In this document: positions 1,176-43,900 of the stretch, piece by piece
How the letters are laid out: each line of letters begins with the position of its first letter
How positions within the stretch are numbered: position 1 is the stretch's first letter
Origin: a virus
Taxonomy: Duplodnaviria > Caudoviricetes
Strand: one strand, 5' to 3'
DNA length: 62,467 bases
IMG/VR virus record: IMGVR_UViG_3300005613_000065
Location: 1-62,467 of that record
Position numbers and translations under genes: made by a program
Notes under the pieces: model-generated
The model's database searches: none
The model's input: only the letters and a program-made list of their open reading frames with translations
Told to the model about the DNA's origin: nothing

Positions 1176-1233
1176 GGACACTTCCCAAACTGGGACAAGG
1201 GCACTTGAAAACAGGTGCCCTTTCTGGTATGAT
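1176..1233 (+). promoter_or_regulatory. sigma70-type early promoter with -35 inside a stem-loop and upstream GxCA-N10-TG motif
   Basis: TTGAAA 1205-1210, 17 nt, TATGAT 1228-1233; stem AAGGGCAC/GTGCCCTT 1197-1222; GGACA-CTTCCCAAAC-TGGGAC 1176-1196. Confidence 0.7.
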
Positions 1234-3185: not shown

Positions 3186-3334
3186 TGATTGAAATGATTA
3201 AAACTCTACTTAAATTCTTATACTCAAAAGAAATAGAAGTTGCTCCTGGTGTTTTTTGGTTGGGTGGAGTATTATATGAGAACAGAAACCGACCAACGAC
3301 ACCACCACCACTTAAATTGAAGACCTCAAAATGA
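3182..3334 (+). CDS. small hypothetical protein
   Basis: read by hand; ATGA overlaps at both ends. Confidence 0.55.
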   Translation: MMIEMIKTLLKFLYSKEIEVAPGVFWLGGVLYENRNRPTTPPPLKLKTSK

Positions 3335-3679: not shown

Positions 3680-4313
3680 TATTATACTCACAAATCCCTC
3701 AAAGATGTTTGAGTATGAAAGATTAGCAAGAAATATTGATAATTGTGAGAATGTAGAGGAACTACAGATTTCACTCAAAGGTATGTTAAAGTTGTATATG
3801 AAACAACAAGAAGTAACGGCATCAGTATTAAAAGAGAAGGTGAAAGAAACCGCACAAGAACGGGGAGAACGACTTCATAAAGATGTGGAAAGAGTTGTGA
3901 AGGAGAGTGTGAAATGGTGTGAGGAAAATCCCGATAAAGACCCATTAGATTGGTTGAAACCTCAAACACCAGAAGAAATTGAGAAATCATTAAGGGAAGC
4001 ATTTAGAGAGGCACAAAAAACAGAAAAGTGGAAAGAAATTCAAAAATTGATTGATGAAGAAGATAATGATAAGAACTTCAAGAATTCTCTTGACATTATC
4101 AAAGAATGGGGAGAGAAGAATAAACCACCTACTCTAAAAGAACTCTTGTGGGAATGGTGGGAGGACATTTTTACTGTTGATAGTGATTTAGATGCTGATG
4201 CTTCTATTGATGTTCTGGTAGATAAGATTGAGGAATTTCTCCCAAAAGAACACGAAACTAACAGTCATAAATGGAATGAGTGTATTAGAACAATCAAGTC
4301 CAAGTTGAGGTAG
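3660..4313 (+). CDS. hypothetical protein; N-terminal ~55 aa resemble NblA-like helix-loop-helix
   Basis: ORF track; SKMFEYERLARNID...LKLYMKQQEV N-terminus; NblA likeness is by eye only. Confidence 0.7.
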   Translation: MMGHPDDIILTNPSKMFEYERLARNIDNCENVEELQISLKGMLKLYMKQQEVTASVLKEKVKETAQERGERLHKDVERVVKESVKWCEENPDKDPLDWLKPQTPEEIEKSLREAFREAQKTEKWKEIQKLIDEEDNDKNFKNSLDIIKEWGEKNKPPTLKELLWEWWEDIFTVDSDLDADASIDVLVDKIEEFLPKEHETNSHKWNECIRTIKSKLR

Positions 4314-4410
4314 ATAAATAATAATGCCTGTAGGTCGCATTATAGGTAGAGAGGGAGCAGAAATGCTCCTTTTCTTGTATAAATAATATTGCGACCTATA
4401 GAGTAGAACT
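4313..4410 (+). promoter_or_regulatory. HEG control module copy 2 (near-identical to 478-575)
   Basis: GATAAATA 4313-4320; hairpin GCCTGTA/TATAGGT 4326-4347; same GAAA terminator; TATAAATA 4378-4385; leader TGCGACCTATAG 4390-4401. Confidence 0.75.
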
Positions 4411-5100
4411 ATGACTTCACAAAGTCCAAGAATATACTTGTATAAAATTACCTTTGAAGAAGTTCCATATTACTATTATGGTGTAAAGAAGGAAGATTAT
4501 TATAATCAAGAGTATTGGGGTTCTCCAATAACTAATAAATGGTGTTGGGAATTTTATACACCAAAGAAGCAGATATTGGAGGTTTTTGATTATACTGATG
4601 AAGGTTGGTTGGAAGCACAAGAGGTTGAAAAAAGATTAATACAACCAGTTTTTAATACTGATAAGTGGTGTCTTAATGAAAATTATAGTGGTGTAGTTTC
4701 TTTAGAATGTCTCATAAGAGGTGGAAAAATTGCTGGAAATAAAAATAAAGAATTGAGGAGAGGAGTTTGTGGAATAACAAAAGAAGAAAGAAGTATAATA
4801 TCAAAAATAAATTATGAAAATGGTATTGGTATTGGTGGAATGGACTATGAAAAAAGAATTGAAATAGGAAAAAAAAGTGCTGCGAAAAATAAAAAGAATG
4901 GAGTTGCTATATTTGCTCTTACAAAAGAACAATTAAGTAATCAAGGTAAAAAAGGTGGAGCAAAAGCAGCAAAGATTATACACAATCAAAAGTGGATGTG
5001 TCTTGAAACTGGTTATATTTCAACTTCTGCTGGTGTTGTTTCTTATCAAAAAGGTAGAGGCATAGATACTTCACGGAATAATAGAAGAAAATTATCATAA
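4411..5100 (+). CDS. GIY-YIG (Seg-like) homing endonuclease, paralog of 576..1175
   Basis: first ~90 aa closely match 576..1175; divergent middle; shared C-terminal QKWMCLETGYI. Confidence 0.8.
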   Translation: MTSQSPRIYLYKITFEEVPYYYYGVKKEDYYNQEYWGSPITNKWCWEFYTPKKQILEVFDYTDEGWLEAQEVEKRLIQPVFNTDKWCLNENYSGVVSLECLIRGGKIAGNKNKELRRGVCGITKEERSIISKINYENGIGIGGMDYEKRIEIGKKSAAKNKKNGVAIFALTKEQLSNQGKKGGAKAAKIIHNQKWMCLETGYISTSAGVVSYQKGRGIDTSRNNRRKLS

Positions 5101-5106
5101 AAGAAC

Positions 5107-5135
5107 TTGACTTCAGGTGTCCTTTGTGGTATAAT
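5107..5135 (+). promoter_or_regulatory. sigma70-type promoter
   Basis: TTGACT-17 nt-TATAAT with extended TG. Confidence 0.75.
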
Positions 5136-9875: not shown

Positions 9876-11054
9876 ATGATTACTCTTCGTCCTCATCAAC
9901 AACAAGCAGTCAAAGCTCTTCAGAATCATTCTATCGGTCAGTGCATCTTTCCGACTGGTGCTGGTAAGACTTTGGTTGCAATCATGGATGCTGTGTCTCG
10001 TTTTGAGTCTGACATTTCGCGGACCATTGTTGTTGTTTGTCCACGCATTCTTCTGGTCGAACAACTTTCTTCTGAGTATCTTGAGCACATCACTAATGCG
10101 CATGTGATGCATGTGCATAGTGGTGAGACCAGACATTTCAAGACCACTAAACCCGAACAAATTAAGCTTCATCATCAAGTTTGCAAAAATGCAAACGAGC
10201 ATGAGATTATCTTTACTACCTATCATTCTCTTCATCGTATTCAGGAAGCTGAGATTGATGTAGATACCATTTACTTTGATGAGGCGCATAATTCTTGTCA
10301 GAATCACTTCTATCCTGCGACTGAATATTTCAGTCAGAATGCCAATCGCAAATACTTTTTTACCGCAACTCGTAAGACCAGTGTGACACCGAAGAAACCA
10401 GGCATGAACTGGACTGAGACCTATGGTCAGGTGATTGCACGAGTGTCTGCACCTGATCTAGTTGAGAATGGATACATTCTTCCGCCTAAAGTCAAGGTGA
10501 TTGAGATGGATAAGGTGGACAAAAAGTCTCTGACTCCTCATCTTGAGAGCAATAATGTTCTTGCTTCGATTGATGAAATTGGAATCAAAAAGATTCTAGT
10601 TTGTGTCAAGACTTCGCGACAGTTGCAGAATCTGTTCATGACAGACTTTGCATATCAATTAACAGAACGTGGTTACTCTTATCTTTACATTACGGCTAAG
10701 ACTGGCGCAATTATTGATGGTCGCAAAGTGTCCCGTGAAGAGTTCTTCAACATTCTAAATGTATGGGGTAAAGACAAATCTAAAAAGTTTGTTGTACTGC
10801 ATCGGTCGATTCTCAGCGAAGGAATTAACTGTAGTGAACTTGAGGCTGTTGTGTTTCTTCGTAATATGGACGCAATTGAGCTTCTTCAAACTGTGGGTCG
10901 TGTGATTCGTGTCGGTTCAGAGAATAAAACCTATGGTTTGTTGTGTGTGCCAGTGTATTCTAATGTTGGAGTTTCGACTCAACGTTCTCTGCAGAAGTGT
11001 GTAGATATTGTGTTTGAGAAAGGTGAAATGCTTGATTCTGTTGTTCGGAGGTGA
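9876..11054 (+). CDS. SF2 DEAH helicase (ResIII/UvsW-like)
   Basis: LRPHQ, PTGAGKT Walker A, DEAH, TAT, ILSEGIN, QTVGRVIR motifs. Confidence 0.9.
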   Translation: MITLRPHQQQAVKALQNHSIGQCIFPTGAGKTLVAIMDAVSRFESDISRTIVVVCPRILLVEQLSSEYLEHITNAHVMHVHSGETRHFKTTKPEQIKLHHQVCKNANEHEIIFTTYHSLHRIQEAEIDVDTIYFDEAHNSCQNHFYPATEYFSQNANRKYFFTATRKTSVTPKKPGMNWTETYGQVIARVSAPDLVENGYILPPKVKVIEMDKVDKKSLTPHLESNNVLASIDEIGIKKILVCVKTSRQLQNLFMTDFAYQLTERGYSYLYITAKTGAIIDGRKVSREEFFNILNVWGKDKSKKFVVLHRSILSEGINCSELEAVVFLRNMDAIELLQTVGRVIRVGSENKTYGLLCVPVYSNVGVSTQRSLQKCVDIVFEKGEMLDSVVRR

Positions 11055-11057
11055 TTG

Positions 11058-11273
11058 ATGGGATTTGATTACACTAACTCTCACATTCTTAATTCACAAC
11101 CTGGCCCAATGGGATTTGTGATTGGAAATGGGGAATATGCTGCAATTCCAATGATGGGAAGTACCACTAAGCTCATGGTAATTCATAACGATCTTCAGCT
11201 TAAAGTATGTCGAAACCGCCAATCTGCCATGAGTTTTATAGATAAACATAGAAAATCAAATAAAAAAAGTTAG
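11058..11273 (+). CDS. hypothetical cyanophage protein
   Basis: ORF track; GGAGG SD; stop inside repeat. Confidence 0.75.
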   Translation: MGFDYTNSHILNSQPGPMGFVIGNGEYAAIPMMGSTTKLMVIHNDLQLKVCRNRQSAMSFIDKHRKSNKKS

Positions 11274-11299
11274 TAACCTGCAAAGGTCCTCTGTAGTGT
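11267..11299 (+). repeat. 33-bp element copy 4
   Basis: AAGTTAGTAACCTGCAAAGGTCCTCTGTAGTGT. Confidence 0.95.
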
Positions 11300-11312
11300 A
11301 ACTGTTGACTTG

Positions 11313-11483
11313 ATGATGACTTCCTTGCATATTGAACTTTACAATGATGGTGTTTGGCAATGCCCAAATACTGGGATGATGATTCCTCTGGGATCTGCAC
11401 CTTACAATGAAGAGGAAATTGCAGAGATGGAAAGGTTCAACATCGATGCACATCTTGATGACGCAATGGACTGGGACTTCTAG
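11313..11483 (+). CDS. small acidic hypothetical protein
   Basis: read by hand MMTSLHIELYNDGVWQCPNTGMMIPLGSAPYNEEEIAEMERFNIDAHLDDAMDWDF. Confidence 0.7.
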   Translation: MMTSLHIELYNDGVWQCPNTGMMIPLGSAPYNEEEIAEMERFNIDAHLDDAMDWDF

Positions 11484-11485
11484 AA

Positions 11486-11617
11486 ATGTCAAACACTCCA
11501 AACTGGCAACATCACAGCCAAAAACAAAAGAAAACGAAAGGAACTTGTAAGGGTATTCTAAGGGGGCGTAAGCAGTCTCTGAAGGCCCTGAAACTCAAGC
11601 TAAGTAGTAAGAGTTAG
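11486..11617 (+). CDS. small basic hypothetical protein
   Basis: read by hand MSNTPNWQHHSQKQKKTKGTCKGILRGRKQSLKALKLKLSSKS; stop inside repeat. Confidence 0.65.
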   Translation: MSNTPNWQHHSQKQKKTKGTCKGILRGRKQSLKALKLKLSSKS

Positions 11618-11643
11618 TTACCTGCAAAGGTCTTCATTACTGT
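11611..11643 (+). repeat. 33-bp element copy 5 (within 55-bp direct repeat 11589-11643)
   Basis: GAGTTAGTTACCTGCAAAGGTCTTCATTACTGT. Confidence 0.95.
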
Positions 11644-11651
11644 AACCAACT

Positions 11652-11746
11652 GATAAATAATAATGCTTAATCGTGGTTGTTTAAGCAAATGAAGGGGTCT
11701 TAATGATCCCTTTTTTAATAAATAATAATAACCACGATTAAAGCAG
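11652..11746 (+). promoter_or_regulatory. HEG control module copy 3 (different sequence, same architecture)
   Basis: GATAAATA 11652-11659; hairpin TGCTTAA/TTAAGCA 11664-11687; terminator GGGGTC/GATCCC+T6 11694-11716; AATAAATA 11717-11724; leader ATAACCACGATTAA 11728-11741 complementary to 11667-11680. Confidence 0.75.
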
Positions 11747-12397
11747 ATGGAATACTACACTTACGCATATTTGCGCGAAGATGGATCACCCTACTACATT
11801 GGTAAGGGTAAAGGAAATAGAGCATATAATCAGCATAAAAGAAAAGGAATAGGTTTTTTGCCAGTTCCACCAAAAGATAGAATAATCAAACTCAAGCAGA
11901 ATCTCACCGAAAAAGAAGCATTTAGACATGAAATCTATATGATTGCTGTTTTTGGTAGAAAAGATTTGGGAACAGGTATTTTAATAAATCTTACTGATGG
12001 TGGAGAAGGATCATCTGGTGCTATTCCTTGGAATATAGGTAAGAAACACTCTCAAGAAATAGTTGAGAAGATAAGAAAAAAAGCAACAGGAAGAATACTG
12101 GATGAGAATACCAAACAAAAAATGAGTAAATCTCATAAAGGCATAAAACATACAGAAGAAACAAAGAAACTAATATCACAAAAACAACTAGGGGAAAATA
12201 ATCATAATTTTCAATATGTTTGGATATTTACCTTTGAAAGTGGTGAAGTTGTCAAAACATCAAGTATGCCAAGTTGGTGTAAAAATAATGGATATGATAA
12301 AGCAGCATTGATGAGAGTGTGTAAAGGTCAAGTTGGAAGACACAAAGACATTGTGACAGTTGAGAAAGTGTCACACAACCCCTTCCAACGGGCATAA
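11747..12397 (+). CDS. GIY-YIG homing endonuclease with NUMOD3 repeats
   Basis: YTYAY...YYIGKG...[12 protein letters not shown]; [21 protein letters not shown]3-type repeats. Confidence 0.85.
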
Positions 12398-12410
12398 AAG
12401 ACCCTATAAT
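12352..12410 (+). promoter_or_regulatory. promoter with perfect palindrome TGTGACA-N10-TGTCACA
   Basis: palindrome 12352-12375; TATAAT 12405-12410; weak -35. Confidence 0.65.
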
Positions 12411-12437
12411 ACAAAGGTAATCAACGAAACGCCTCAA

Positions 12438-12845
12438 ATGAGCACCAGAAGTCGCGTAGGTCTTGAACTTGCTGACGGAAGTATCCTCTCAATCTACTCA
12501 CATTATGATGGGTATCCTGAGTGGGCGGGTCGTATTCTTCGCACCCACTATAATACCCGTGAGAAAGTTGAGGCACTTGTGGATGGTGGAGATGTAAGTT
12601 GTCTTTGGACCGATGAAGGATTTTATACTTCTGAAGGTTCAACTCAACGGGATTGTTACGGACCTCTTCATTACAACGAAAGAGGTGAAAATTGCCCTCC
12701 TCGTCTTGATGCTAACTTGATTGAGTATGTTGGTGATGGTGAAGAATATGCCTATCTTTATACTTTGAAAGGTGAATGGGTATGCTATGAACTTCACGAA
12801 ACTCCTAAAATTGTTGAAATTCCCTCTGGAGCACTCATGGCATGA
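12438..12845 (+). CDS. conserved hypothetical phage protein
   Basis: ORF track 12360..12845; start MSTRSRVG; YSHYDGYP and EYAYLY motifs. Confidence 0.8.
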   Translation: MSTRSRVGLELADGSILSIYSHYDGYPEWAGRILRTHYNTREKVEALVDGGDVSCLWTDEGFYTSEGSTQRDCYGPLHYNERGENCPPRLDANLIEYVGDGEEYAYLYTLKGEWVCYELHETPKIVEIPSGALMA

Positions 12846-12864
12846 AACTTAAGCTAAGTAGTAA

Positions 12865-12897
12865 GAGTTAGTTACCTGCAAAGGTCTTCATTACTGT
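12865..12897 (+). repeat. 33-bp element copy 6 (within 55-bp direct repeat 12843-12897)
   Basis: identical to copy 5. Confidence 0.95.
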
Positions 12898-12914
12898 GAC
12901 CCACTAATTTAATT

Positions 12915-13475
12915 ATGAAAAATCGCTCACAAATTGGCATAAAACTTAAGTCTCTTCTCATTGCAGGTATTCTCGCAATACCTGCATTTTTTTCAAATCA
13001 AGTCAAGGCAGATGAACAACATCGTTATCTTGCAAGAACTATTCGATCTGTTGGAGTTTCTGTAACTATCAACACACGAGTTCATTGTTCTCCAGGAGAA
13101 TCTGGGAGTTATTATCCTGCAGGATTTATGGTCATCTGTCAGGACAATCGCAGGCAAGATGGAGTCGAAGTCGAATGGACTGCTAATGATCTTGATACTC
13201 TGCGCCATGAAGCACATCATATGATTCAGGATTGTGCTGCTGGTGGTATTGGTGATCGTAAAATGTCTCTGATGTTTAACACTCAAGAAGAGCTTGTTAG
13301 ATTTTTATCAAATTCTGGCTACACACAACAAGAACTACAACAAATTTCTAGTCATTATCAAAAACAAGGTGTGACTGGCTATGATTTGTTGATGGAATTG
13401 GAAGCATTTGCAGTTGCTAGATCCATTCCTGCTGATATTATTGCAAACAAAATTAAGGAGTATTGTATCGAATGA
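12915..13475 (+). CDS. putative zinc metallopeptidase-like protein with signal peptide
   Basis: HEAHH (HExxH), downstream ELEAF, hydrophobic N-terminus ending VKA. Confidence 0.7.
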   Translation: MKNRSQIGIKLKSLLIAGILAIPAFFSNQVKADEQHRYLARTIRSVGVSVTINTRVHCSPGESGSYYPAGFMVICQDNRRQDGVEVEWTANDLDTLRHEAHHMIQDCAAGGIGDRKMSLMFNTQEELVRFLSNSGYTQQELQQISSHYQKQGVTGYDLLMELEAFAVARSIPADIIANKIKEYCIE

Positions 13476-25799: not shown

Positions 25800-28700
25800 A
25801 TGACAGTAGATAGAGTTAAATTTCAAGAGATTGTTTCTAGTCAACTCCCACGATACGTTCGTGAAGATTATCCTCTTTTACCAGAATTTTTAGAACAATA
25901 TTACATATCACAAGAATATCAAAGTGGACCAATTGATATTATTAATAATATTGATCAATATGTAAAAGTTGATGAATTATATAATCTGGTAAGTTCTACA
26001 ACACTATCATCTGATTTGAACTATACTTCAACAACTATTGATGTTGATTCGACTGAAGGATTTAACGATAATAATGGATTGATACAAATTGATGATGAGA
26101 TTATATTTTATAAATCAAAAACTCCCACATCTTTTGTAAATTGTTCTAGGGGATTCAGTGGAATTACTACTTATATTACATCTGGTTCACCAGATCAATT
26201 AACTTTTTCTACATCTGAAATAGATGCACACAGTTCTGGATCTACTGTACATAATTTAAATATTCTTTTTCTTCAACAATTTTTTAAGAAACTTAAAAGA
26301 CAAGTTATTCCTGGATTTACGGAAAGAAATTTATATTCTGGACTAGATCAAAGAAATTTTATTTTCAATTCAGATTCTTTTTACAAATCAAAAGGAACAA
26401 ATCAATCTTTTGAGATACTTTTTAGAGCATTATATGGTGAGGATGTTGAGATTATTAAACCTTCTCAGTATCTTTTTACTCCATCAAATGCCGACTATAA
26501 AGTAACAAAAGATTATGTTGTCGAAAGATATTCTGGCGATCCTTTAGAATTGAAAGATTTAACTATTTTTCAACCTTTGACTGGGGCAAGGGGTTCAGTC
26601 ACAAATGTTCAACAAATACCATATGAAAATTATCAGTATTATCAAATAAGTGTTGACTCTGGTTATTCAAGAGACACTGATGTAACTGGTTCAATTTATG
26701 GTGAATTCAAACCAAACCCTCTTACAAAAATTCTTAATAATGTATCTGTTGGAGCAACAGTTATTGATGTTGATTCAACGATTGGTTTTCCTGAATATGG
26801 AAATTTGCAAACATATGATATTGATAATCAAATAGTTGGTATTGCATATAGTGGTAAAACATCCAATCAATTTTTTAATGTGGATGGTGTAATTACTGAA
26901 ATCTCTAAAAAAACGAATATATCCTTAGATTCTTATTCTTATGCTTATGTTGGAATTGACACTTCTCAACAAATACGAGTTAAGTTTACATCTACGTTAA
27001 AAGATTTTGTACAAAATAAACCGAATTATTATTATCTAAGAGATGATACTGTAAAAATAAAGTCTTTGGGATATGAAGTATCAGGTAAAAAATATAATAA
27101 TTACGTTTTAAATATCAAGACAAAATGGAAAGTTGCTGAGTTAGAAGTAGTAGATATCAATGCATTTTCTTATCAGTTTATTTTTTATGAGAAACATTTC
27201 TTACAAGAAGGTTACTCAGTTCTGATTGAAAATTTTGATGGATCTTATTCGATACCTGGAACTGTTGTAAGAATTGTTTCAGACACTGAAGTTATTATTA
27301 ATTTCACTCAGAGTATTAGATTACCTGAAGAATATTATATTGAAAATCAACTTTTGAGAGGTAATTCATTAAAGTATTCATATCTCAATAACTATATTGG
27401 AAACGTACAAAATACTTATGCAAAGTTTAACGGAGATTTATTAGTTGCTTCAAACTCAATTCCAAACTACTATAATTTACAAATAAATCCTTATAGTAAA
27501 AAAATTACTTTTAGTACTTCTCTAATAAGTACTGACACTTTAACTTTACCCGTAAATCCATCTAGTATACCAGATCATGGGTTTTATACTGGTGATTCAA
27601 TATATTTTGAATCAAATGGTAATGGATTTGAAGGTATTCCATCTGGATCGTATTTTGTTTATAGAGTAAATGAGAAAAGCATAAAACTTTCTAGAAGTAA
27701 AGCAGATCTGTTTAAAAAAATATATTTAATTTTTAACGGTTCTGTAATTGACGCATCAATTTCATATCTTGAATTCTACAAAAAAAATATTGAACCTCAA
27801 GGAATATACAGAAAAATAACAAGTCCAGTAAATCAAAGTAAAAATAACATCACAGAAGCTGGATATACTGGTATATTTGTAAATGGTGTAGAACTCTGTA
27901 ACTATAAGTCACAGAACAGTGTGTACTATGGAAATATTGTTGACTTTACTATAACAAGTGGTGGTGAAGGTTATGATATTATTAATCCACCTGTTTTAAA
28001 TATAAATGATGATATTGGTGTTGGAGCAACAGGTAATTGTAATGTAAGGGGTGATTTAAAACGACTTGATGTTATTGATGGTGGATTAGGATATTATGCA
28101 CCTCCAACAATAACAATTGCTGGAGGAAATGGAACTGGGGCTTCAGCTGAAGCAAGAATGATTTCCATAGTTCATGAAAATTCTTTTATTGCAAATTCTC
28201 CATTACAGGTTAACTTAACAACGGATGAAATTATTTTTACTGATGATCATAAATTCTCAGATGGTGAAAGTGTAATATATGAACCTAGAAGTACAAAGGT
28301 CATAACAGGTCTTACTACAGAGAGTCAATATTTTATTCAAGTAACTGGTCAAAATTCAGTCAAATTACATACAACGTCTAGTGATGCTATAGCAGGTATC
28401 AATACAGTTGATATCACAGAATATGGAGAAGGAACTCAATATTTTGTCGCATCAAAATTAAAACAGGTAGTGTCTTCTGTTGTTATTACAAATCCTGGTA
28501 TTAATTACGAAAATAAAAAGAGAACTATTCCAAGTGTTGGCGTTAATACTGCATCAAATAGAGTAGAAATTAAAAGTCACGGATATCAGTCAAAAGAAAT
28601 TGTAAGATATTATGAGGGTACTCCTAAAGTTTCAGAACTTAGGGAGGATAAAGATTATTATGTAGTAAAAGTAAATGATAATGAGTTTTCATTGACAGAG

Positions 28701-31700
28701 GTTGGAATTGGAACCATTTCAAGAGATTATTATTATGATAATGGTATTATTATTAATTTTTCAAATCCTGGATTAGGTTCATTCAACTATCCACCAATTA
28801 CGGTTACTGTTGAAGGTGCTGCAGCATCTTATGATAAAACTTTTGTTGAAGACTTTCAAGAACTTTTTATCATTGAATCTCCAATTGTTGAAAACATAAT
28901 TACTCCTAGTAATATACTTGCCTGGACTGATACTGTAGCAGAAATAGAAACTCCATGTAGCATTTATACTTTAATAAGTGATGGATCAAATTGGTTGATT
29001 AGTGAGTATCCTTTTATCGGTAATATACTATTATATGATGCTAAAGTTCAACCAATATTCAGAGGATCGATTGAATCTATAGATCTTACAAATGGTGGTG
29101 TTGGTTATGGATCTTCAGATATCATAGATTTTGTAAGACAACCAGAAGTTACATTTGAATCTGGAACTGGAGCTAAACTGACTCCAATTATAAACAATGG
29201 TAAAATTGTAGATGTTATTGTAAATATTCCAGGAAGTGGATATAATTCACCTCCAGATTTAAATATTATCAGTGATACTGGAGACTATGCAATTCTTGTT
29301 CCGATTATATCAAATGGACAAATTGAAAGAGTTGTTGTTTCAAAAGGTGGTGTAGGATACGAGGCAGGAAAAACGACTATAGACGTAATTCCTGCTGGTT
29401 CAGCAGCAAGAGTTAATACAAATATTAATTCATGGAATGTCAATCTTTTTGAAAGAAATTATAATAATATTTTAGATGATGATGGATTTATACAGGAAAA
29501 TATATCAAATGAAAATTTACAATACTCTTCACTATATTTACCAAGAGCTCTGAGAAAATCATTGAATTCAGTAAATGGTTTTGACAAAGATAATATAAAG
29601 TATGGTAGTTTCGATTTAACAATAAATTCTAATGAAGAGGAAATAGATAACTTATACCACTCTCCTATTGTAGGGTGGGCATATGATGGTAATCCAATTT
29701 ATGGACCATATGGATTTAGTAATATAGATGGTACTGGTTCTATAAAGAGGATGGAAAGTGGTTATAAATTAAGGACCACATCAATTAATAGACCTTCATA
29801 TGACGCATTTCCAAATGGTTTCTTTGTTGATGACTATATTTTTACTGGTAATGGTGATCTTGACATTTATAATGGAAGATTTTGTGTGACACCAGATTTC
29901 CCAAATGGTGTTTATGCATATTTTTGTACAATTTCAGAAAATATTGATTCTTCTGGGCCTTTTAATAAATTTAGAAGACCAATTTTTCCTTATGTGATAG
30001 GAAATAGTTATAAATCTAATCCTATTGAGTTTAACTTCAGATCAATATCCAATCAGACTGATTTTGATATTGAGTCTGATGGTTGGTTGAGAAATACCAC
30101 ATATTACTCCACTAACGGTGGAAATCGTGAGTATGACTATATTTTCAACTCAAATAAAATAAGACAACAATCATTAGATGTAACTTCTACTACAAAAGGG
30201 TCTATAGATTCTCTTACAATATTAGATTCTGGTAAAAATTATAAAGTAAATGATAAAGTAATATTTGATACTACAGGAACTGAAGGAAGAAATGTCAACT
30301 GGAAGGTATCTAAAGTAAAAGGAAAACCTGTAGATAATGTAAGTCTTGCCACAACTTTCTTTGATGAGGTTGAATTTACATCATCAACAATAAACACCAG
30401 ATTTGTTGGTTTAACTTCTCAACCACATAATTTTCTGATAAACGATACGGTTTTTATTGACAGTCTTTCTTTTGATTTTAAAAATTTCTCTGGTTCTTAT
30501 AATATTGGAGTTAGTAGTTCAAGATGGTATACATCTCTTGGAATTCCTACTGATACAGTAACTGGTATTGTTACTTTCATCTATGTTTCTGGGTTATTAA
30601 ATCCAAGTACAATTTCTTCTAATGATATTGTAAGAATTGAAGGAGAAAAATTTAAAGTATTGAATATTGACACTAATTCAAATAGACTTAGAGTTATCAG
30701 AGGATATGATAATACTTTATCTGTTGCTCATTCTGCAGGAACTCTTGTCAGAGATGATCCTAGAAAAATAATATTTACTGCGGCTTCTATATCAACAACA
30801 AAATATCTTCCAACAAATAAAGAATATTATTTTGCACCTAATGAATCACTTGGTATTGGAACAAATTCCGTAGGATCTGCAACTACAATTACTTTTTCAA
30901 ATCCTGGAGTTGGTATAACACAAATTATTTTAGATCAACAACAAGTTTATTTTCCAGATCACGATTTGGAATTAAACACTCCGATGATATATTATACTAA
31001 TGGAGGTACTTCTATTCAGTGTTGGAGTGGTGTTACAAGTACATCAATTTTTAGTCTTGAATCTGAAAGAAATATTTTTGCAGTTCCAATATCAAAGGAT
31101 ATTATTGGAATTGCAACAGTAAGAGTTGGTATTGATAGTATTTCAGGAAATTATGTTGGTGTTGGAAGTCAGACTGGTGGATTATTATATTTTACAAACT
31201 CTGTAGGTCTTGGAAGTTATCATAGTTTTAAAACTAATAAGTTATCAGTATTAAAAGGAAGAGTTTCTAAAAATGTAGTTACTGTTTCTACTGCTCAGAC
31301 TCATGGCCTTAAGAGGGGTGACAGAATTACAATGGATCTAAATCCAAAAAATACTATTAAAATTGATGTTTTATATAATGATTATAATAGAAGAATTGTA
31401 TTTGATCCAGACACTGTTGAACCTACAGGAATCAACACGTTTTTAAATACTTTTACTGTACCATCTAATAAGTATAGATTAGGCGATAAAATCATATACA
31501 CATCAAACGACCCTTCTCAAAATTTAGATGATAATGGACTTTATTATGTTTATCCACAAGAAAATGATAAGATTAAATTAGTTAAAAATGTTTCTGAGTT
31601 AAGAAAACAAAATCCGAAATTTATTAATGTAGGATCTGCAACTACAGGAACCATTTCCAGAATAAACCCTGAAGTTAGAATTCAAAAAAATCAAAACATA

Positions 31701-34700
31701 AGATTTAATTTATCAGATTCTTCATTATCATTTGTAAGTTCTGGATTAAGATATTCTGCATTTGATATGTTCATATATTCTGATTCTGAATATATGAACA
31801 AATTCTGGATAGCAAATGAATCTGAATCATTTGAAGTTACAAAATCGGGTGTTATAGGTGTAGATACTAATGCATATTTAAATCTTTATGTAAGTGAAAA
31901 TATTCCAAATAACTTGAAGTATAACTTTGAGCTTGACAATGTTGATATTATAACTCCAGTTAAGGAAAGAATTCTTATTGATAATACTGTCTTTAATAAT
32001 AACCAATTGAATGTTATTAAAAATAAATTTGATGGTGATTTTAGTGTTGTCGGTGTAAGTTCTTTAACATTTGATTATAATATACCATTTAATAGAGATA
32101 CCGTAACCTCATATGGTTCAACAAACTCCGTAATATCTTATGATACAACTTCAAGAACTGCATTTGGTCCAATATCTAAACTTTATCCTCTTAATAAAGG
32201 AATTGGATATAAATCTCTTCCAGGATTTACATCAGTAAGAAGTAATACAGGAACTGGTGCTCTTATACAACCTAATAGTACTACTATTGGAAGTATAATA
32301 AATTGGAAATTTAACTATATTGGTTTTGGATATCCATCAGATAAGACTCTGAATGCCGTTGCAAATTTACCAGAAATATTGAAGATTGATCCTCTTGTAT
32401 CCTTTGAATCTATAGGAATTAATTCTTCAGGTGTTAACTATAGTACTGCACCTGATCTTGTTGTTGTTGATGGAGTAACTAATAAACAAATAACAGATGT
32501 AGATTTAACATATGAACTTGAAGATAACGAAGTAACAATACTTCAAAATACAATTTCTTTGAATAACGTACCTCCATCTATTATTCCTATTAATAATTCA
32601 AGTAATTATGGAATCAGTTCTGTAACCTATTCACCATCAAATAAAGTAGTACGTCTTACTTTATCAAAACAATTTAGTGACGAAAAAGATTGGCCATTCA
32701 AGATTGGTGAATCTATTATCGTAGAAAATATTGCGATTGGATTTGGAACTGATGGAAAAGGTTATAACTCTGAAAATTACGAATATGCACTTTTTGAAGT
32801 TATTGGACTTGATAGTCAATTAGGTGGAGCTGGTGCATATGTCGAATATAGTCTTTCTGATTATCTTGAAAATGGTGAGTATCCAGGTAATGTAACTTCT
32901 GTTTATGCAGCAACAATTACTCCTCAATCATTTTTCCCAATTTTTGAATCAAAGTTAAAAATATCAAACTTCTTAAGTGGCGAAAAAGTTTTCACTGATA
33001 ATTCGGTTGGAGTTGTGGAAAGATGGGATCCTGTGAGTGAATACTTATTTGTAACTACACAAGATGATCTAAAAATTGGAGATATTATTCAATCAGAGAC
33101 ATCCCAAATTAAATCAACTATTAGTTCAAAAATTGATTTTGACTCAATTATCGAATTGGGAGTAGGAGCAACATTTATTGATGGTTGGCAAACAAATTCT
33201 GGATTTTTGAACGATAATCTACAAGTTCTTCCAAATAATGAATATTATCAAAATTTCTCATACTCTCTGAAATCAAGAGTTGATTATGATACTTGGAATG
33301 ATCCAGTAAGTGCATTAAATCACACTGCTGGATTTGAAAAATTTGCAGATCTTGTCATCGATAATGATGCGGTAGGTATTGTTTCTGCTGTTGATATTGA
33401 TGTTGAAACAGTTATTGATCTTATAGGTGAAGGTAGTCTTAGTTGTTTCCCAGATTTTGATGATGCTACTGAAACTACTCTTAGAATAGGTAGTGGAAAA
33501 ATAGTTTCTAACGAAATTATTTTTGAAAATCGTATTCTGGTTGATTATTTCGAATCAAGAGGGAACAGAGTATTAGATATTGATGATTTTAGTGATCAAT
33601 TTAACAGTAACGCAAGAAGTACTTCATATTCAATTGTTGACTTTTTTGATGATAAGTTTACTTTCAATAAAATCTTTACTCTTGTACAAGATACTGAATT
33701 AAGAGATAGAAAACAATTTAGTATTGTTTCTGTTCTTCAAAATAAAGATCTTGGTTACATAAACCAATATGGTGTTTTGGATACGATTACTCCTTTAGGT
33801 TATTTTGATTATATTGATGCGGGGGATCAATGGGGTCTTGCATTTTATCCAAATCTTTTTGAATATAATAATTATCAAATTTCATACTTTACATTTAGTG
33901 GATTAGATAATGTAGTAGGTATTAATTCTACAAATCTTGGAGATGTTGTACAAATATCTACAGCTAGTACAAACGTATCTGTGGGTACAACTACAAATAT
34001 TGTATCTATTTCTTCTACTTATAGGGCAGCAAAACTTTTAGTTCAACTTGAGGATCAAGATAATAATTATTTTGGTAATGAGTTAAATATTTTAAATACT
34101 GGATCTACTGTTAATATACTTCAATATGGTGATATTGATAGTAATATTGGTATTACAAGTTTTTCTGGATTTGGAACTTATTTTGCATATTTAGATGGTG
34201 GTCAAATTAAAGTTGATATAATTCCAACTGTAGGTACAGCTGTTACTGCAAATACTAGTGTGGTTGCAATTAGTACTTCTGGTTCAACAGGAGTATCGAC
34301 GACAAATCTTGTTGTTACAAACCTATCATCATATTCTGTAGCTATAGCTTCTTCTTCATCTCCAGTTGCAGAAATAGTTGCATCATATTCCGATCCCTTC
34401 TCTTGTGAATATTATATTGTTTCTGTTGAGGACATTACAAATAATGAATATGAATTATTTGAAATTAATGTACTTAATAATGATTCAAATCAATCATATG
34501 TTGAATTTGCTAAAATTAATACATCATCTGGTCTTGGTACAGTAGGAGTTTCTACAAGTGGAACAGAAACAAACTTAATTTATACTCCAATACCAAATAT
34601 TGATGTTGAAATTAGAGCATTTGGCATTTCTCTTAAAAATTATAATAATATTGTTGGTATTTCATCTATTGATTTAAATAACAATATTTTATTTTCTGAA

Positions 34701-37700
34701 TATGGAACTTATACTGGAACAGAGTTTGATAAGAAAACTGCATTTAAACTGAATCATAATAGTCTTCCAATATTTGAAAGAACATTTGAGGGAAATAGTT
34801 CATCTGTTGTAAACATTAACAACAATCAAGTAATTCTTGATGATCATTATTTTGTAACTGGTGAAAAAGTCACTTATAATTATGAAAATTCCTCTCAATC
34901 AACAGCTAATGCAATTGGTATTGTGACAACATCAGTATTAGGAATATCAACAGACAAATTACCATCTACTCTTTATATTGTTAAGTATAGTAATAGAAGT
35001 GTAGGTTTTGCAAAAAGTGCTGCAGATGCATTATTACCAACTCCAATTACTTTAGATATTACAAATCTTGGTATTGGTACATTCCATCAGATTGTATCGA
35101 CAAATCAAAATGCAAGAGCTCTCTTAGCAATTGATAATATGGTACAAGCACCTGTTACACAGGTAAAAATTGATACTCAATTAGATCAGAATATAATATT
35201 TGATGTTGATTTTACAGTAACTGGTATTTCATCATTTAAGTCAAATGATCTCATACAGATTGATGACGAAATTATGCTGATTCAAAATATTGGAGTTGGA
35301 GCTACAAATAAATTTAAAGTCTTAAGGGCTCAGTTAGGAACAGAAGTTGCATCTCATAATATTGGAACTTCTGTAAATCTTCTTGGTGGTAATTATAATA
35401 TTGTAGATAATACTGTACATTTTGCTTCCGCACCATATGGTGCTACTCCAATTGGAACAACAACTGGAAGTCCAGATGAAAGAGATTGGTCTGGTATTAC
35501 AACCTATTCTTCTTTTCAAGGAAGAACTTTTATGAGAAGTGGAATTCAAAATGACACTGTTGATACTTATAGTACAAATTATACTTTTGATAATATACAA
35601 AGTCAATTTGATGGTCAAAAGAAAGTATTCACTGTTACTTCTGAAGGTAATAATATTACTGGATTTGCAACAAATCAAGCTATTGTCCTAAATTCTAATA
35701 TTCTTCAGGAACCTCAAGGTGCTCAATCATCAGTAGGAGATTATAGTTTCCTTGAAGTTGCTGGTGTCACAAGTATTACCTATCTTGGTGATAGTGTTTC
35801 ATCTGAAGATGATCCAAATAGAGCTACAATACCTAGAGGTGGATCTATTATATCAGTTGGTTCAACTCCTGGTTTTGGTTATCAACCATTAGTCTCTGCT
35901 GGTGCATCAGTATTTGTTTCAGCAGCAGGAACTATTACATCAATAAGTATTGGAAATAGTGGTTCTGGGTATAGGACAGGAATACATACAGTAAATGTTG
36001 GTATTATTACTTCTACAACAGGAATAGCCACAGTAACAAATATTGGTGTTGCTAATGTAAGTGGAGGTATTGTAACAAGTATTACATTAACTGGTTTTGG
36101 AACTGAGTTAGATGAAAATAATCCTCCAACTGTTGTTATCGATGCTCCACTTCCATACTCTGGAATTCCTCTTGTTTATAGTTCTGATTCACCAGCTGGT
36201 GTTGGTACTGGAGCAAAAGTTGATATTCTTGTTGGACAAGGATCAAGTGTCGTAAATTTTGAGATAGTAAGTCCAGGATTCGGATATAAAGAGGGTGAAA
36301 TACTCCGACTTTCTATAGGAGGGACTACTGGTATTCAAACAGACATAAGTCTTCCATATTCTGAGTTTCAACTTTCTGTTTCTGAAGTTTATAGAGATAC
36401 ATTTAATGGATTTACAATAGGTGAACTTGATGTGTTTGATAGTTTAGATGAACTATTTGATGGAGAAAGAACCAGATTTCCATTAACAATTGCAGATGAA
36501 CAGTATGCTATTGAATCTCCTAAAGGATCGAATATTAATATAGTACAAACACTAATTGTTACTATTAATGATATTCTTCAAATTCCTGGAGAGGCTTATA
36601 GATTTACTGGTGGAAGTATAATTGAATTTGCCGATCCTCCAAAAGAGGGTGATACTTCTAAGATTATTTTCTATAAAGGAACACCTGATGTTGATGTTGT
36701 ATTAGTAGATATACTTGAAACTGTAAAAGTTGGTGATACTCTCCAATTAAAAAATAATTCTTCAAAAGGTCAATCTTTTGGATTATACCAGGATCCCAGA
36801 ACTGTCATAGGAATTACAACTCTAGATACTGTAAAAACTTTAGCATATGAAGGTCCAGGTATTACTACAAATCAAAGTTTAGTTAGACCTGTAGAGTGGT
36901 GTAAACAAAGAAATGATATAGTAATAAATGGTGATTTTGTAACTAAAGATAGAGTTGAATATGAACCAATCATATATCCAGTTTCATACTTAACAAGTTA
37001 TGTTGGTATTACGAGTTCTTATGTATATGTTGATACTGTAAGACCACTTTTTGATTCTGCAAATGAAACATCTCTTCTTGATTATCAAGATAGAGTTACG
37101 ATCACTGATCAGGGTGAAATAGATCCAGCCACAGCAATTGCAGTTGTAAATAATGGTTCTGTTTCATATTTTAGTATGACAAATGTTGGTGCTGGTTATT
37201 CAAGACTTACAAATCCAACAGTTTCAATTTCAAAACCTGATGATCCTTCTGGAATAACTGCTACTGCTATGGCAATTGTAGTTGGTGATAGAGTTGCATC
37301 CTTACAAATTGCAAATCCAGGTTCTGGTTATATACAATCTCCTCAAGTTCTTATTGAAGTTCCAAATGTAAGAAAAGAGCAAATTGGTGTTTCTTCTTAT
37401 TATGGTGATCAAGGTGTAATAGTAGGTTATGCATTTTCTTCTGGTGGTCTTACAACACTTGAACTTCATATTCCTGAAGATTCATATATGAGAGATCCTA
37501 ATATTGCTGGTATTGCAGTAACTTTAAGTGCTTTGAATTCTGGAGACATATTTGTTGTCAACAAATCTAATTTTGGTATTTTCGAAAGTGATAATTTTGA
37601 CAATATATATCAAGTCACTAATGCATATAATATTACAAAAGATCTCAGTAGTGTAGGTTTAGGGACTACTACTATAAGAAGAGTTGAATTTGTACAGTCT

Positions 37701-40913: not shown

Positions 40914-43900
40914 ATGCCACAGGAAACTAATCTCAACGTTGCACCTTACTTTGATGATTTTGATCCGCAACAAAATTATTACAAAGTTTTATTTAAACCT
41001 GGATTTCCTGTTCAGGCAAGAGAATTAACAGGATTACAATCCATACTTCAAAATCAAATTGAAGATATGGGTAGTCATTTCTTTAAAGAAGGTGCAAAAG
41101 TTATTCCTGGAGATCTTACATATATACAAAATTTTTATTGTATTCAGATTGAACCTGAATTTTTAGGAGTTCCAGTAGGAATTTATCTTGATCAACTTGT
41201 TGGCACTTTAATTACGGGACAGACATCTGGCGTTACAGCAAAAGTTGTAACTTATATTACAAATGAAGAATCTGAGAGAGGAGTATATACACTTTATTTG
41301 AACTACGAGAATTCAAGTTCAAATGATGATGAAATAAGTACATTTTTAAGTGGGGAAATATTACTTACAAATACAAATATAACTTATGCATCTACTTTTA
41401 TCTCATCTGGTGAAGGTTTTGCAACAACAATTCCTCAAAATGCCCCAGCAATAGGTTCCTCTTTTAATATCTCTCAAGGAATTTACTTTTTAAGAGGTTA
41501 TTTTGTTGATGTCACAACTCAAACACTCATTCTTGATCAATATTCAAATAATCCATCCTATAGAGTAGGACTTGATGTTATAGAGGAGATTATTTCATCG
41601 GATGTTGATCCTTCTCTTAATGATAATGCACGAGGATTCAATAATTTTACTGCTCCAGGTGCAGATAGATTAAAAATAACTCCAATTTTATCAAAAAAAC
41701 CAGTAGGAAGTTTTGATGAAGCCAATTTTGTTCAACTTGCTGAAGTAAATAATGGAACTTTAAGAGCCGTTAATACAAATACTGATTATAATTTTATTGG
41801 AGATGAATTTGCTAGAAGAACTTATGATGAATCTGGTCATTACTATGTAAAAGAATTTGTAACAACTGTTAAAAATAGTTTAAATGATGGCGAAGGAAAT
41901 CGTGGGTTATTTACAAAAGATCAGGTTACAAGTCAAGGCAATACTCCCTCTGATAGTTTAGGTATATATAAAATTTCTCCAGGTAAGGCATATGTTAAGG
42001 GATATGAAGTAGAAACCATATCTCCCACACTATTGGATTTTAAAAAACCAAGAACTGTCAAAAATATAAAAAATCAAGCTGTTAATTTTGGTTTTGGACC
42101 AACATTGAGTGTTAATAGAGTTTATGGTTCACCAACTATCGGAATCAACACTACAAATACTCTAAGTCTTAGAAGTAAAAGAGTGGGTTCGGATCAAGAA
42201 GTAGCACCTGGAAAGGAAGTTGGAATAGCAAGAATTTATGATTTTGCTCTTGAATCTGGATCTTATGATACTAATTTTCCCAATTTAAATGTTTGGGATT
42301 TATCATTGTTTGATGTACAAACTTATACTGATATTTCTTTAAATGAACCAGTTACATTAAATACATCGGTTTATATTAAAGGAGAATATAGTGGTGCTAC
42401 TGGTTATTTAAAATCTTCTGTTTCTGCAGGAACAGCTTTAACTGCTTATGGTGTAAATGGGGACTTTTTTAGAGGTGAAAGACTTATTTTTAATGGAGTT
42501 CTTGATGACTCAAGATTTGTAACGGGTTCTAAAAACTATTCTATTTCTGATGTTAAGTCTGTTTTTGGTATTGTAGGAAGTGCTACAACCTTCACTGCTG
42601 ATACAATTCAATCTCCAACATATAATATTGGAAATGCATCAGTATCACCTCAAGTAGCTAATTCTTCCAGAATTTCAATTCCAGTAAATCCTGGTTTTTC
42701 ATTCGTCGGTATTGTTACTGTAGGTAATCTTGTCAGGTTCTCAAGATCATCTCTTGACACAACAACATTTGCAAGAGTTACTGGAGTAGGTAGAACAAAC
42801 TTTACGGTAACAGGAATTACTACTGTGAGTGGTGTAGTTGATGGAGGTCTTCCATCGACTACTGAAAGTATATCTAATTTACAAGTAATTAGTACAAGAA
42901 TTCAGAGTAATGTTGGATCTGGTAATATTACCAGTAATGAATCTCTTTACAGTGCATTTCCAAAGAAAAATATTGCTTCGGTAAATCTCACCAATTCTGA
43001 ATTGGTTATTAGAAGACAGTTTACTACTAACATTACTAATGGATCTACTCCTGCAATTAGTGCAAGTGATAATGAAGTATTCTTACCATTTGATGAAGAA
43101 AGATATACATTGATAAGATCAGATGGAACTACAGAAGTATTAACGGAAGATAAGTTTAGTCTTACAAATGGTTCAACAACCCTTCAAATTAATGGATTGG
43201 GATCAAATGATACTAATTCAAAACTTATCACTACACTAAGAAAAAGTAATATTAAATCAAAAGTAAAATTAAAATCCGTTTCTAACAGTATTATTATTGA
43301 TAAATCAAATATTTCAGCTTCTGGGATTGGAAGTACAACTTTAAATGATGGTTTGATTTATGGAAACTATCCATTTGGTACAAGAGTGCAGGATGAAATT
43401 ATATCACTTAATACACCAGATGTAATTAAAATTTATGGTATATTTGAATCTAATGACATAACTGATCCAGTATGTCCAAGTATGACCACTTCTCAGATGG
43501 ATGGCATTACAAAAACCACCAATGATTTAATTGTTGGAGAGACATTAACTGGTCAAGTTTCTGGAGCTAAAGCTGTTTATTTGGAAAAAATAGACGATGG
43601 TGGTATTAATTATGTTTATTTAAATAATGTTACTTTCCAAAATGGAGAGATTGTTTCTTTTGAAAAATCTAATGTTAATGCAATTGTTGCAGATGTAAGT
43701 CTTGGTTCTAAAAATATAACAAAGAATTTTAAATTTTCAAATGGACAAAAAGGTGGTTTTTATGATTATTCAAGAATATTAAGAAAGGGAAGTGTTGGCA
43801 TTCCTTCAAGAAAACTAAGAGTTTATTATTCTACTGCAAATTATTCTACATCAGATGAAGGTGATATTACTACAACCAATTCTTACGTGAATTTCAATTA

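Follow-up and report, generated by a model that had tools for sequence, protein, structure and literature searches.

At positions 11652-11746 (+ strand) of IMG/VR record IMGVR_UViG_3300005613_000065, two late-promoter motifs, a short hairpin and a terminator-like hairpin are crowded into the space immediately upstream of a free-standing homing endonuclease gene (HEG). What would a mobile nuclease gene do with two late promoters in a row, the first of which seems to serve a transcript of about 50 nt that is complementary to the start of the nuclease mRNA? We analysed the whole record as one window of 62,467 bp (G+C 34%), together with related loci from viral metagenomes and cultured phages. Our results suggest that we see here one copy of a self-contained cassette for expression control, which moves with the free-standing mobile-nuclease genes of T4-like cyanophages, and that the nuclease is probably kept scarce by an anti-leader segment able to pair with its mRNA.

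Anatomy of the cassette

All elements of the cassette lie on the + strand. It opens with a late-promoter motif (P1), GATAAATA at 11652-11659, which is of the NATAAATA type and is followed by a 5-nt spacer, ATAAT (11660-11664). Next comes a hairpin, H1 (11665-11686), apparent from sequence and fold, whose arms GCTTAA (11665-11670) and TTAAGC (11681-11686) enclose the loop TCGTGGTTGT (11671-11680). The 5' arm and loop of H1 together constitute the anti-leader (11665-11680), which is complementary to the leader of the HEG and forms a duplex of -19.2 kcal/mol with it. An intrinsic-terminator-like element follows at 11691-11716, a 9-bp hairpin (with GGGGTC at 11694-11699 and GATCCC at 11705-11710) and a run of six T residues (11711-11716), and it abuts the second late-promoter motif (P2), AATAAATA at 11717-11724, again with the spacer ATAAT (11725-11729). 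The HEG late mRNA would then begin with a 17-nt 5' untranslated region (UTR; 11730-11746), whose nt 1-15 are the leader, and the ATG stands at 11747. Between the presumed P1 start and the end of the T-run lies a predicted small transcript of about 52-53 nt (11665-11716), recognised by its fold and by a covariance model of the small-RNA unit alone (model R2), which matches 11652-11717 at E = 6e-9.

The first-pass annotation of this DNA, made from the letters alone, had listed the promoters, hairpin, terminator, T6, leader and ATG, and we find each of them base for base where it had placed them. The pairing that it described is also present: the leader at 11728-11741 and the segment 11667-11680 form 14 bp, one of them G-U, and past a bulged A at 11742 the helix can be extended by G11743 and C11744, which pair with C11666 and G11665. 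Regulator and target are 50 nt apart on the same strand. The likeness in spacing to two further modules of the window, at 478 and 4313, was confirmed as well, the ATAAATA cores of P1 and P2 being 65 nt apart in 3/3 (479/544, 4314/4379 and 11653/11718).

The fold energy is -18.9 kcal/mol for the predicted 53-nt RNA (z = -5.1) and -33.0 kcal/mol for the read-through form of the module (z = -6.3), with 0/200 shuffles as good in either case; read-through RNA takes up a long-range helix, with energies from -33 to -44 kcal/mol and z from -6.3 to -8.1. The P2 leader and early coding region, taken alone, have no significant structure (-7.4 kcal/mol, z = -0.6). A search of the window with Rfam 15 gave no match at gathering thresholds, the best score within 11600-11800 at E <= 10 being 15.5 bits against a cutoff of 64. 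Since Rfam has no such family, the module qualifies as a candidate for a new one.

Covariation and specificity of the address

We chose 120 IMG/VR loci by HEG protein similarity only (the best 80 of 228 confirmed for the protein encoded at 11747, and 40/40 for that of the HEG-like gene at 4411). A motif script sought in them a TAAATA lying 55-100 nt upstream of a second TAAATA, itself 21-50 nt before the HEG start, and a covariance model of the full module, R1, was built from 89 unique modules, to which the per-module counts below refer.

The recognition sequence varies freely among these modules while its pairing is kept. There are 50 distinct leader 10-mers, and the number of distinct specificities is large despite the kinship of the sequences. 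Cognate duplexes (anti-leader nt 1-24 with the leader) average -20.8 +/- 2.1 kcal/mol, compared with -9.1 +/- 3.9 for all non-cognate combinations; when partners were permuted, 0/2000 permutations reached the observed mean, and the own leader was the best partner for 62/89 RNAs. On the R1 model alignment, 87.7% of cells were paired, as compared with 68.9% after column shuffling and 42-67% when the partner was slid, figures that lean towards the model and alongside which the alignment-free tests above were used. In the same alignment the covariation score was 0.534 (vs 0.209; 0/500 shuffles reach it), and both-sided changes occurred at 7/7 pairs of the outer helix and 8/9 of the terminator; the inner helix was only 62% paired because indels misplace it.

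The types of pair tell which strand is under selection. A mismatch-blind tally counted 1072 Watson-Crick pairs, 34 G-U, 0 A-C and 9 others. Neutral transitions would yield as many A-C as G-U pairs, and the ratio of 34 to 0 therefore indicates selection on the + strand RNA and not on DNA.

Most pairs within a genome are orthogonal. Between the module at 11652-11746 (module 3) and those at 478 and 4313 (modules 1 and 2), cross-duplexes amount to -5 to -8.5 kcal/mol whereas cognate ones reach -19 to -21, and these duplex energies bear out computationally the proposal that the pairs are orthogonal. Within genomes, cognate duplexes are of -18 to -24 kcal/mol and others mostly of -2 to -14, the exception being modules 1 and 2 of the window, which have one address in common. 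The additional suggestion of one pair per HEG family has to be given up: many leader classes are found inside the family of the 11747 HEG, and one class (GCGACC...) precedes both families. To judge from these loci, the address is not tied to HEG family.

Placement of the pairing between promoters and terminator

T4 late promoters start transcription at the sixth base after the octamer (6 nt after TATAAATA). When this rule is applied to the cassette, P1 and P2 carry the same signature at the presumed start, with a T just before it and G as the commonest first base. P2 reads TATAAATA in 84/89 unique modules and AATAAATA in 5/89. The complementarity begins at the presumed P2 start in 89/89, extending 0, 1, 2 or 3 nt beyond it in 12, 51, 20 and 6 modules, respectively, and its other end falls at nt 1-3 of the predicted P1 transcript. 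In all 89 the complementary strand lies upstream of P2 and the predicted UTR is 17-25 nt long.

The position of P1 is just as regular. In 108/120 HEG-selected loci it is separated from the first paired base by a constant 5 nt, and homology among modules starts exactly at P1, each position upstream of it carrying 0.0-0.3 bit. The point at which contigs from other samples diverge is precisely 11654 (these contigs came from four public runs, three of them RNA libraries, which can contain DNA). On sequence grounds, P1 is part of the cassette and marks the left edge of the mobile unit.

At the other end of the predicted small RNA, a 3' hairpin of -11 to -23.5 kcal/mol is present in 89/89 P1-bearing unique modules, and the T-run is conserved; in families, the terminator helix is 95.5% paired and 7/7 of its pairs change on both sides (model alignment). 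A promoter and a terminator of its own would in this way delimit a short transcript. The H1 stem begins at nt 1-2 in 87/89 and its 3' arm tracks its own 5' arm (cognate stems of 5.9 bp vs 5.0 bp when permuted, 0/5000 permutations reaching the former). Pairing in trans is thermodynamically favourable even when the cost of opening H1 is counted, the net gain being -13.0 +/- 2.1 kcal/mol and below -5 in 89/89.

In most modules 0-3 nt separate the end of the T-run from the P2 octamer, and about 17/89 have 10-30 extra nt between the two, with a P1-P2 spacing of 76-95 nt. Terminator-P2 segments are common to modules with different recognition sequences. As a separate observation, a degenerate promoter-like word (TATTATAAAC...) recurs once or twice within the insert between T-run and P2; carriers of the insert include L018, L035, L037, L085, L095, L097, L099-L101, L105, L109 and L114 (A1 alignment columns 89-110).

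Occurrence beside mobile-nuclease genes

The pattern had been put forward as a general regulatory design upstream of HEGs, with lack of enrichment there named as the outcome that would speak against it. What we find is an all but complete enrichment, and a tight linkage to HEGs and other mobile-nuclease genes. A full module was present in 108/120 HEG-selected loci, 107 found by the motif script and one (L072) by the covariance model; the remaining 12 comprise two loci cut by the contig end, six with a variant form, one (L089) without P1 and three without a module. In the window, R1 run on both strands gave three matches only (E 1e-11 to 8e-10, none other to E = 1), and 3/3 sit directly 5' of HEG genes. 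In five phage genomes or large contigs (S-SRM01, B23, G001, G002 and G003; about 1.0 Mb), 18/18 matches end at the start codon of an ORF. The six in S-SRM01 precede genes for three NUMOD3 proteins, one HNH/endoVII-like protein, one homologue of the 4411 gene and one PHROG 655 homing endonuclease; the others are three in B23, five in G001 (including one before an HNH_3/NUMOD4 gene), two in G002 and two in G003. One G001 ORF behind a module (L131) has no family or significant similarity match, and its C-terminus is 4411-like by eye only.

In the HEG-selected loci, R1 detected eight additional modules outside its training set. The ORFs behind them are HNH-type (L006, L112), GIY-YIG-type (L039, L058, L072), cut by the locus end (L050, L019) or reduced to a 14-codon remnant (L004). 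A module in G003 (G003:C1:34452-34569) lies directly before a TnpB gene (L129, G003:C1:33300-34700, minus strand), whose product of at least 385 aa combines OrfB_IS605 (E = 4e-29), Cas12f1-like TNB and HTH_OrfB_IS605 domains; classical homing endonucleases are therefore not the only genes that the cassette accompanies. Among cultured phages, S-SRM01, B23 and the marine phage S-B68 have full modules, S-CREM2 has one with a degenerate P1 and Sf-CH5 has the variant form; S-N03 and ACG-2014f have no module. Blastn with module 2 matched S-SRM01 only, plus two chance 25-mers in Coprococcus phages, and megablast with window 11000-13000 returned no near-identical match among GenBank phages.

The variant form is found at L024, L025, L058, L068, L070, L073 and L136 (phage Sf-CH5). 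Here the anti-leader sits in the loop of a different hairpin, no TAAATA precedes it, the T-run is not clear, and the leader pairing reaches the ATG; in the six of 120 HEG-selected loci that belong to this class, the complementarity is kept in the absence of P1 and a clear terminator. At L024, TTGACA occurs about 17 nt upstream of the P2 octamer and could make an overlapping early/late promoter of it. Sigma-70-like promoters were found before 2/4 unique sequences of these variant (class II) hairpins, near the chance rate of the scan, and were dropped as evidence.

Small-RNA units that have lost their gene are not common. Intact orphans were sought with R2, whose 16 matches in the five genomes were all known full modules; none was found in the window either, and 98 matches in the loci included one decayed orphan remnant (L004:480-540). 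This remnant keeps P1, the hairpin and half of the terminator, P2 and leader being absent, and the next ORF start looks DNA adenine methylase-like by eye. At 3216-3324 of the same locus, an intact module is followed by only a 14-codon GIY-YIG-like stub.

The module also bears on annotation, since it marks mobile-nuclease cassettes in viral metagenomes and corrects erroneous start codons and product names of GenBank entries. In S-SRM01, B23 and Sf-CH5, NUMOD3 homing endonucleases go under the name "translation initiation factor 2", and two S-SRM01 coding-sequence starts (QPX48040, QPX48262) fall inside the module, upstream of the module-predicted ATG. The loci with annotation problems are L124 3492-4193 and 14716-15474, L126 467-1168, L123 401-1024 and L136 (Sf-CH5) 295-717.

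A proposed mechanism and its alternatives

We propose that the anti-leader, 14-16 nt long, would pair with the first ~15 nt of the nuclease late mRNA started at P2. The duplex would cover most of the 17-25 nt UTR, which has no Shine-Dalgarno sequence, and would block binding of the 30S subunit; the nuclease would therefore be translated only from P2 transcripts that are unpaired. Two routes can be envisaged. In cis, the anti-leader would act on RNA that derives from upstream and passes the terminator. In trans, P1 and the intrinsic terminator would yield a separate, stable late RNA of about 50 nt, starting at the first base of H1, which would pair with the P2 mRNA and throttle late HEG synthesis. 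That the pairing is selected and represses translation seems to us very probable, and action in cis on read-through RNA scarcely less so. Because P1 and the terminator frame the anti-leader so precisely, it is also likely, if somewhat less certain, that a discrete late RNA of about 50 nt is produced. Its action in trans on the cognate mRNA is a claim that we would back only cautiously, and with the same caution we favour a dual mode, in which the anti-leader would act in cis on read-through RNA and in trans from a small RNA made at P1.

The alternative that comes closest would have the anti-leader merely fold back on the leader in read-through RNA; P1 would be inactive, weak or incidental, and a functional small RNA would not exist. 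It has experimental precedent in T-even HEGs (passages of PMC2988022 and PMC3014915), and the main text of PMC2677866 gives the same reading to metagenomic HEG hairpins. Read-through RNA is to be expected, since the modules sit among small, early-looking genes on the same strand; it does form the long-range helix of -33 to -44 kcal/mol, and the variant class retains the pairing without P1 or terminator. Such a scheme, however, has no role for P1, for all its fixed distance from the first paired base and its position at the left edge of the mobile unit. The late promoter of T-even HEGs is placed to exclude the 5' strand, whereas the placement of P1 takes in precisely the whole of that strand, and a terminator between the two strands would remove most substrates for folding in cis. 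We regard this scheme as possible, though on balance unlikely. Transcriptional interference would assign P1 a different task: polymerases started there would pause and terminate on the T-run and occlude the abutting P2, and complementarity would matter only in cis. The close apposition of T-run and P2 octamer in most modules is what one would expect, but the abutment is not conserved, given the extra nucleotides in about 17/89 modules, and it would be left unexplained why the P1 transcript begins exactly at the anti-leader; we consider interference improbable.

The small RNA might even be a positive factor, whose pairing protects the HEG mRNA from 5'-end-dependent decay or opens an inhibitory structure. 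The duplex does involve the extreme 5' end of the mRNA, but there would be nothing to open, since the P2 leader and early coding region are not significantly structured, and a duplex over most of such a short UTR normally hinders initiation, which makes this reading still harder to believe than interference. The inverted repeat and duplicated promoter could, finally, be a DNA-level element for recombination, cassette shuffling or endonuclease recognition, in keeping with the mobility and sharp left border of the cassette and with the terminator-P2 segments that modules of differing recognition sequence share. A DNA duplex or cruciform would not prefer G-T over A-C, however, and the pairing has survived free change of the recognition sequence; of the explanations considered, we find this one the least credible.

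Several observations weigh against the dual mode that we favour. P1 and P2 are both late, and the gain from co-producing repressor and target is not obvious. Both transcription starts are taken from the T4 rule, with the backing of the common T/G signature. The variant class pairs without P1 or a clear terminator, and L089 and the S-CREM2 module have no canonical P1, from which it follows that the small-RNA unit is dispensable. Between the end of the pairing and the AUG 3-12 nt are left free, and no Shine-Dalgarno sequence can be recognised under the duplex; for this reason we count repression as inferred. H1 is short (mean ungapped stem of 6.0 bp vs 4.7 bp shuffled, 32% of shuffles reaching the observed length), only 56% of its cells are paired on the model alignment, and the loop "toehold" is 0 nt in 24/89 minimum-energy folds. 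A simple terminator scan listed 0/3 of the module terminators of the window, presumably because its greedy extension of stems swallows the T-run. From the raw MAFFT alignment, RNAalifold retrieved no more than four pairs, all in the terminator, because indels throw the variable region out of register. The modules are, moreover, related by descent, and the permutation counts overstate their independence.

A more far-reaching scenario can be imagined, in which the trans-acting late small RNA has a fast-diversifying address (at least 50 specificities in 89 modules) shaped by conflict between nuclease and genome, with a private RNA for each nuclease; an RNA kept after nuclease loss would silence the nuclease of a co-infecting phage and provide RNA-based homing immunity. 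We give this little credence, the idea being weakened by the lack of intact orphan RNA units in the five genomes and the window.

Free-standing nucleases are frequent in T4-like cyanophages: there are three in this 62-kb contig, and at least six with a module in S-SRM01. They are potentially harmful to their carrier, and a portable silencer would explain their spread and persistence across GIY-YIG, HNH and even TnpB families. If action in trans is real, the modules would also provide dozens of naturally occurring, short RNA/5'-UTR pairs, orthogonal to one another and free of Shine-Dalgarno sequences, which might serve as regulatory parts in cyanobacteria.

Genes and promoters of the window

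The gene behind module 3 (11747-12397, +) encodes a free-standing homing endonuclease of 216 aa with a GIY-YIG-like N-terminus and NUMOD3 (Pfam NUMOD3 E = 1.8e-12; PHROG 314 "homing endonuclease" E = 7e-19). Module 1 (478-575, +; R1 E = 2.7e-11) has the same architecture and shares its recognition sequence with module 2 (4313-4410, +; R1 E = 1.1e-11); the latter differs from it by one A-to-G change, and both local and long-range pairing are kept via G-U. Module 1 precedes an HEG-like gene for a 199-aa protein (576-1175, +), a paralogue of the 4411 gene with 54% identity to the 4411 protein and a PHROG 314 match at E = 1e-4. Module 2 precedes the 4411 gene itself (4411-5100, +; 229 aa), HEG-like and of a family without a Pfam match, homologues of which stand behind the same module in S-SRM01 and B23.

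The 11747 gene had been called unrelated to these HEGs. BLASTP indeed finds no similarity between the 11747 and 4411 products (E = 0.96), but the 576 and 11747 proteins both match PHROG 314, and the two families may, to go by these common matches, not be truly unrelated. A profile search of the 4411 protein family against PDB sequences gave 0 matches at E <= 1, and the AlphaFold model of the 4411 HEG is poor (pLDDT 52, pTM 0.26, N-terminal domain below 50). A GIY-x11-YYG spacing in this family was noticed by eye only. The C-terminal ~30 residues are alike (W..E.G..) in three otherwise dissimilar nuclease families (window 12159-12191, L131 and the 4411 family), which may be a common DNA-binding module; BLASTP for the pattern reached E = 0.11 only.

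The long ORFs of the window are almost all on the + strand. They encode T4-type proteins (baseplate wedge, head closure, tail sheath stabilizer, large terminase and tail sheath), and the tail sheath protein is 72-73% identical to its counterparts in Synechococcus phages Bellamy and S-SM2; on the strength of these structural proteins and this identity, we read the contig as a T4-like cyanomyovirus. Two giant ORFs lie among the structural genes, at 25800-37967 (+, 4055 aa) and 40914-48677 (+, 2587 aa).

ATAAATA occurs 21 times in the window, 20 times on the + strand and mostly shortly upstream of ORFs; as a word it is not over-represented there (21 copies vs 32 +/- 5 in shuffles). These + strand copies upstream of ORFs appear to match the NATAAATA late promoter reported for cyanomyoviruses in a passage of PMC2984593. 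The structural genes of the window phage carry the same N-ATAAATA form as P1, and no Shine-Dalgarno sequence is recognisable in the late leaders of this phage. Sigma-70-like matches lie at 1205-1233 (+) and 5107-5135 (+), 30 and 7 nt past the stop codons of the first two HEGs. With 10/12 and 11/12 positions and both TG-extended, they are among the better matches in the first 14 kb and look as if the cassette restored early transcription of downstream genes after its own terminator; the sigma-70-like promoter scan overall was not above chance (56 vs 48.8 +/- 5.7).

Comparison with known systems

In IS10, RNA-OUT is a small, stable hairpin whose loop pairs with the extreme 5' end of the transposase mRNA (RNA-IN), blocks the ribosome and limits the enzyme as copies rise. 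The cassette resembles it in setting a hairpin-loop regulator against the mRNA 5' end of a selfish-element enzyme. RNA-OUT, however, is encoded on the opposite strand and overlaps its target, whereas the regulator of the cassette lies upstream on the same strand, and its complementarity must for that reason be upheld by covariation. We rejected a cis-encoded antisense RNA of the RNA-OUT type on this account, the strands being the same and 50 nt apart, and the 34 G-U against 0 A-C pairs fit the + strand. A type I toxin-antitoxin system was also ruled out, the regulated genes encoding nucleases of 146 to at least 385 aa and not small hydrophobic peptides.

Among phage RNAs, StxS arises by early termination of a phage late transcript (PMC7547250). 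As in the cassette, a phage late promoter is closely followed by a terminator to give a short regulatory RNA; StxS is a by-product of antitermination with targets in the host, whereas the target of the cassette RNA would be the leader of the adjacent gene. CfrI of cyanophage S-PM2, an antisense RNA of ~225 nt across an HEG and psbA (passages of PMC2984593 and PMC12197685), is likewise a non-coding RNA linked to an HEG in a T4-like cyanophage, but has, as described there, no promoter-hairpin-terminator-promoter module. In the part of a 2025 review of phage small RNAs that lists them, CfrI is the only one connected with an HEG (PMC12197685), and the S-SRM01 genome paper mentions promoters 0 times.

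The nearest relatives are hairpins that control HEGs in cis. For I-TevI, I-TevII, I-TevIII, segB and mobE of Aeh1, transcripts from upstream promoters fold and sequester the initiation region, and an internal late promoter gives translatable RNA (passages of PMC2988022 and PMC3014915). In the T-even hairpin HEGs and T4 gene e, as there described, a late promoter lies immediately upstream and the complementary strand pairs only on longer transcripts, as in the cassette, and the selfish nuclease is silent except from its own late transcripts. The cassette differs in that its helix is long-range, enclosing an intrinsic terminator and the promoter itself; that it lies over the 5' terminus of a UTR devoid of a Shine-Dalgarno sequence, whereas the T-even helix covers Shine-Dalgarno sequence and AUG; that the inhibitory strand has, precisely at its 5' end, a second late promoter; and that this strand also forms a local hairpin.

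Dassa et al. (2009) reported hairpins in 15/16 UTRs of metagenomic phage endonucleases, ten of which contain TATAAATA together with two mutually complementary motifs (PMC2677866, main text). According to that text, the hairpins lie upstream of free-standing endonucleases of several nuclease families, in ocean-metagenome "fractured genes" attributed to phages. Their element is probably the same as ours or a sister element, and the cis component of the cassette is not new, since it was very likely this element that they saw. In the main text it is read purely as a translational hairpin acting in cis; the word "terminator" occurs there 0 times, and we came across neither a second promoter upstream nor a small RNA in it. 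More generally, the literature on phage HEG control that we covered, outside of which lie the primary papers on Aeh1 mobE and the supplement of PMC2677866, describes no promoter-hairpin-terminator-promoter module and no small RNA for HEG control. What is new here is the precisely placed P1 with its terminator, on top of the known hairpin control of HEGs of the T-even type.

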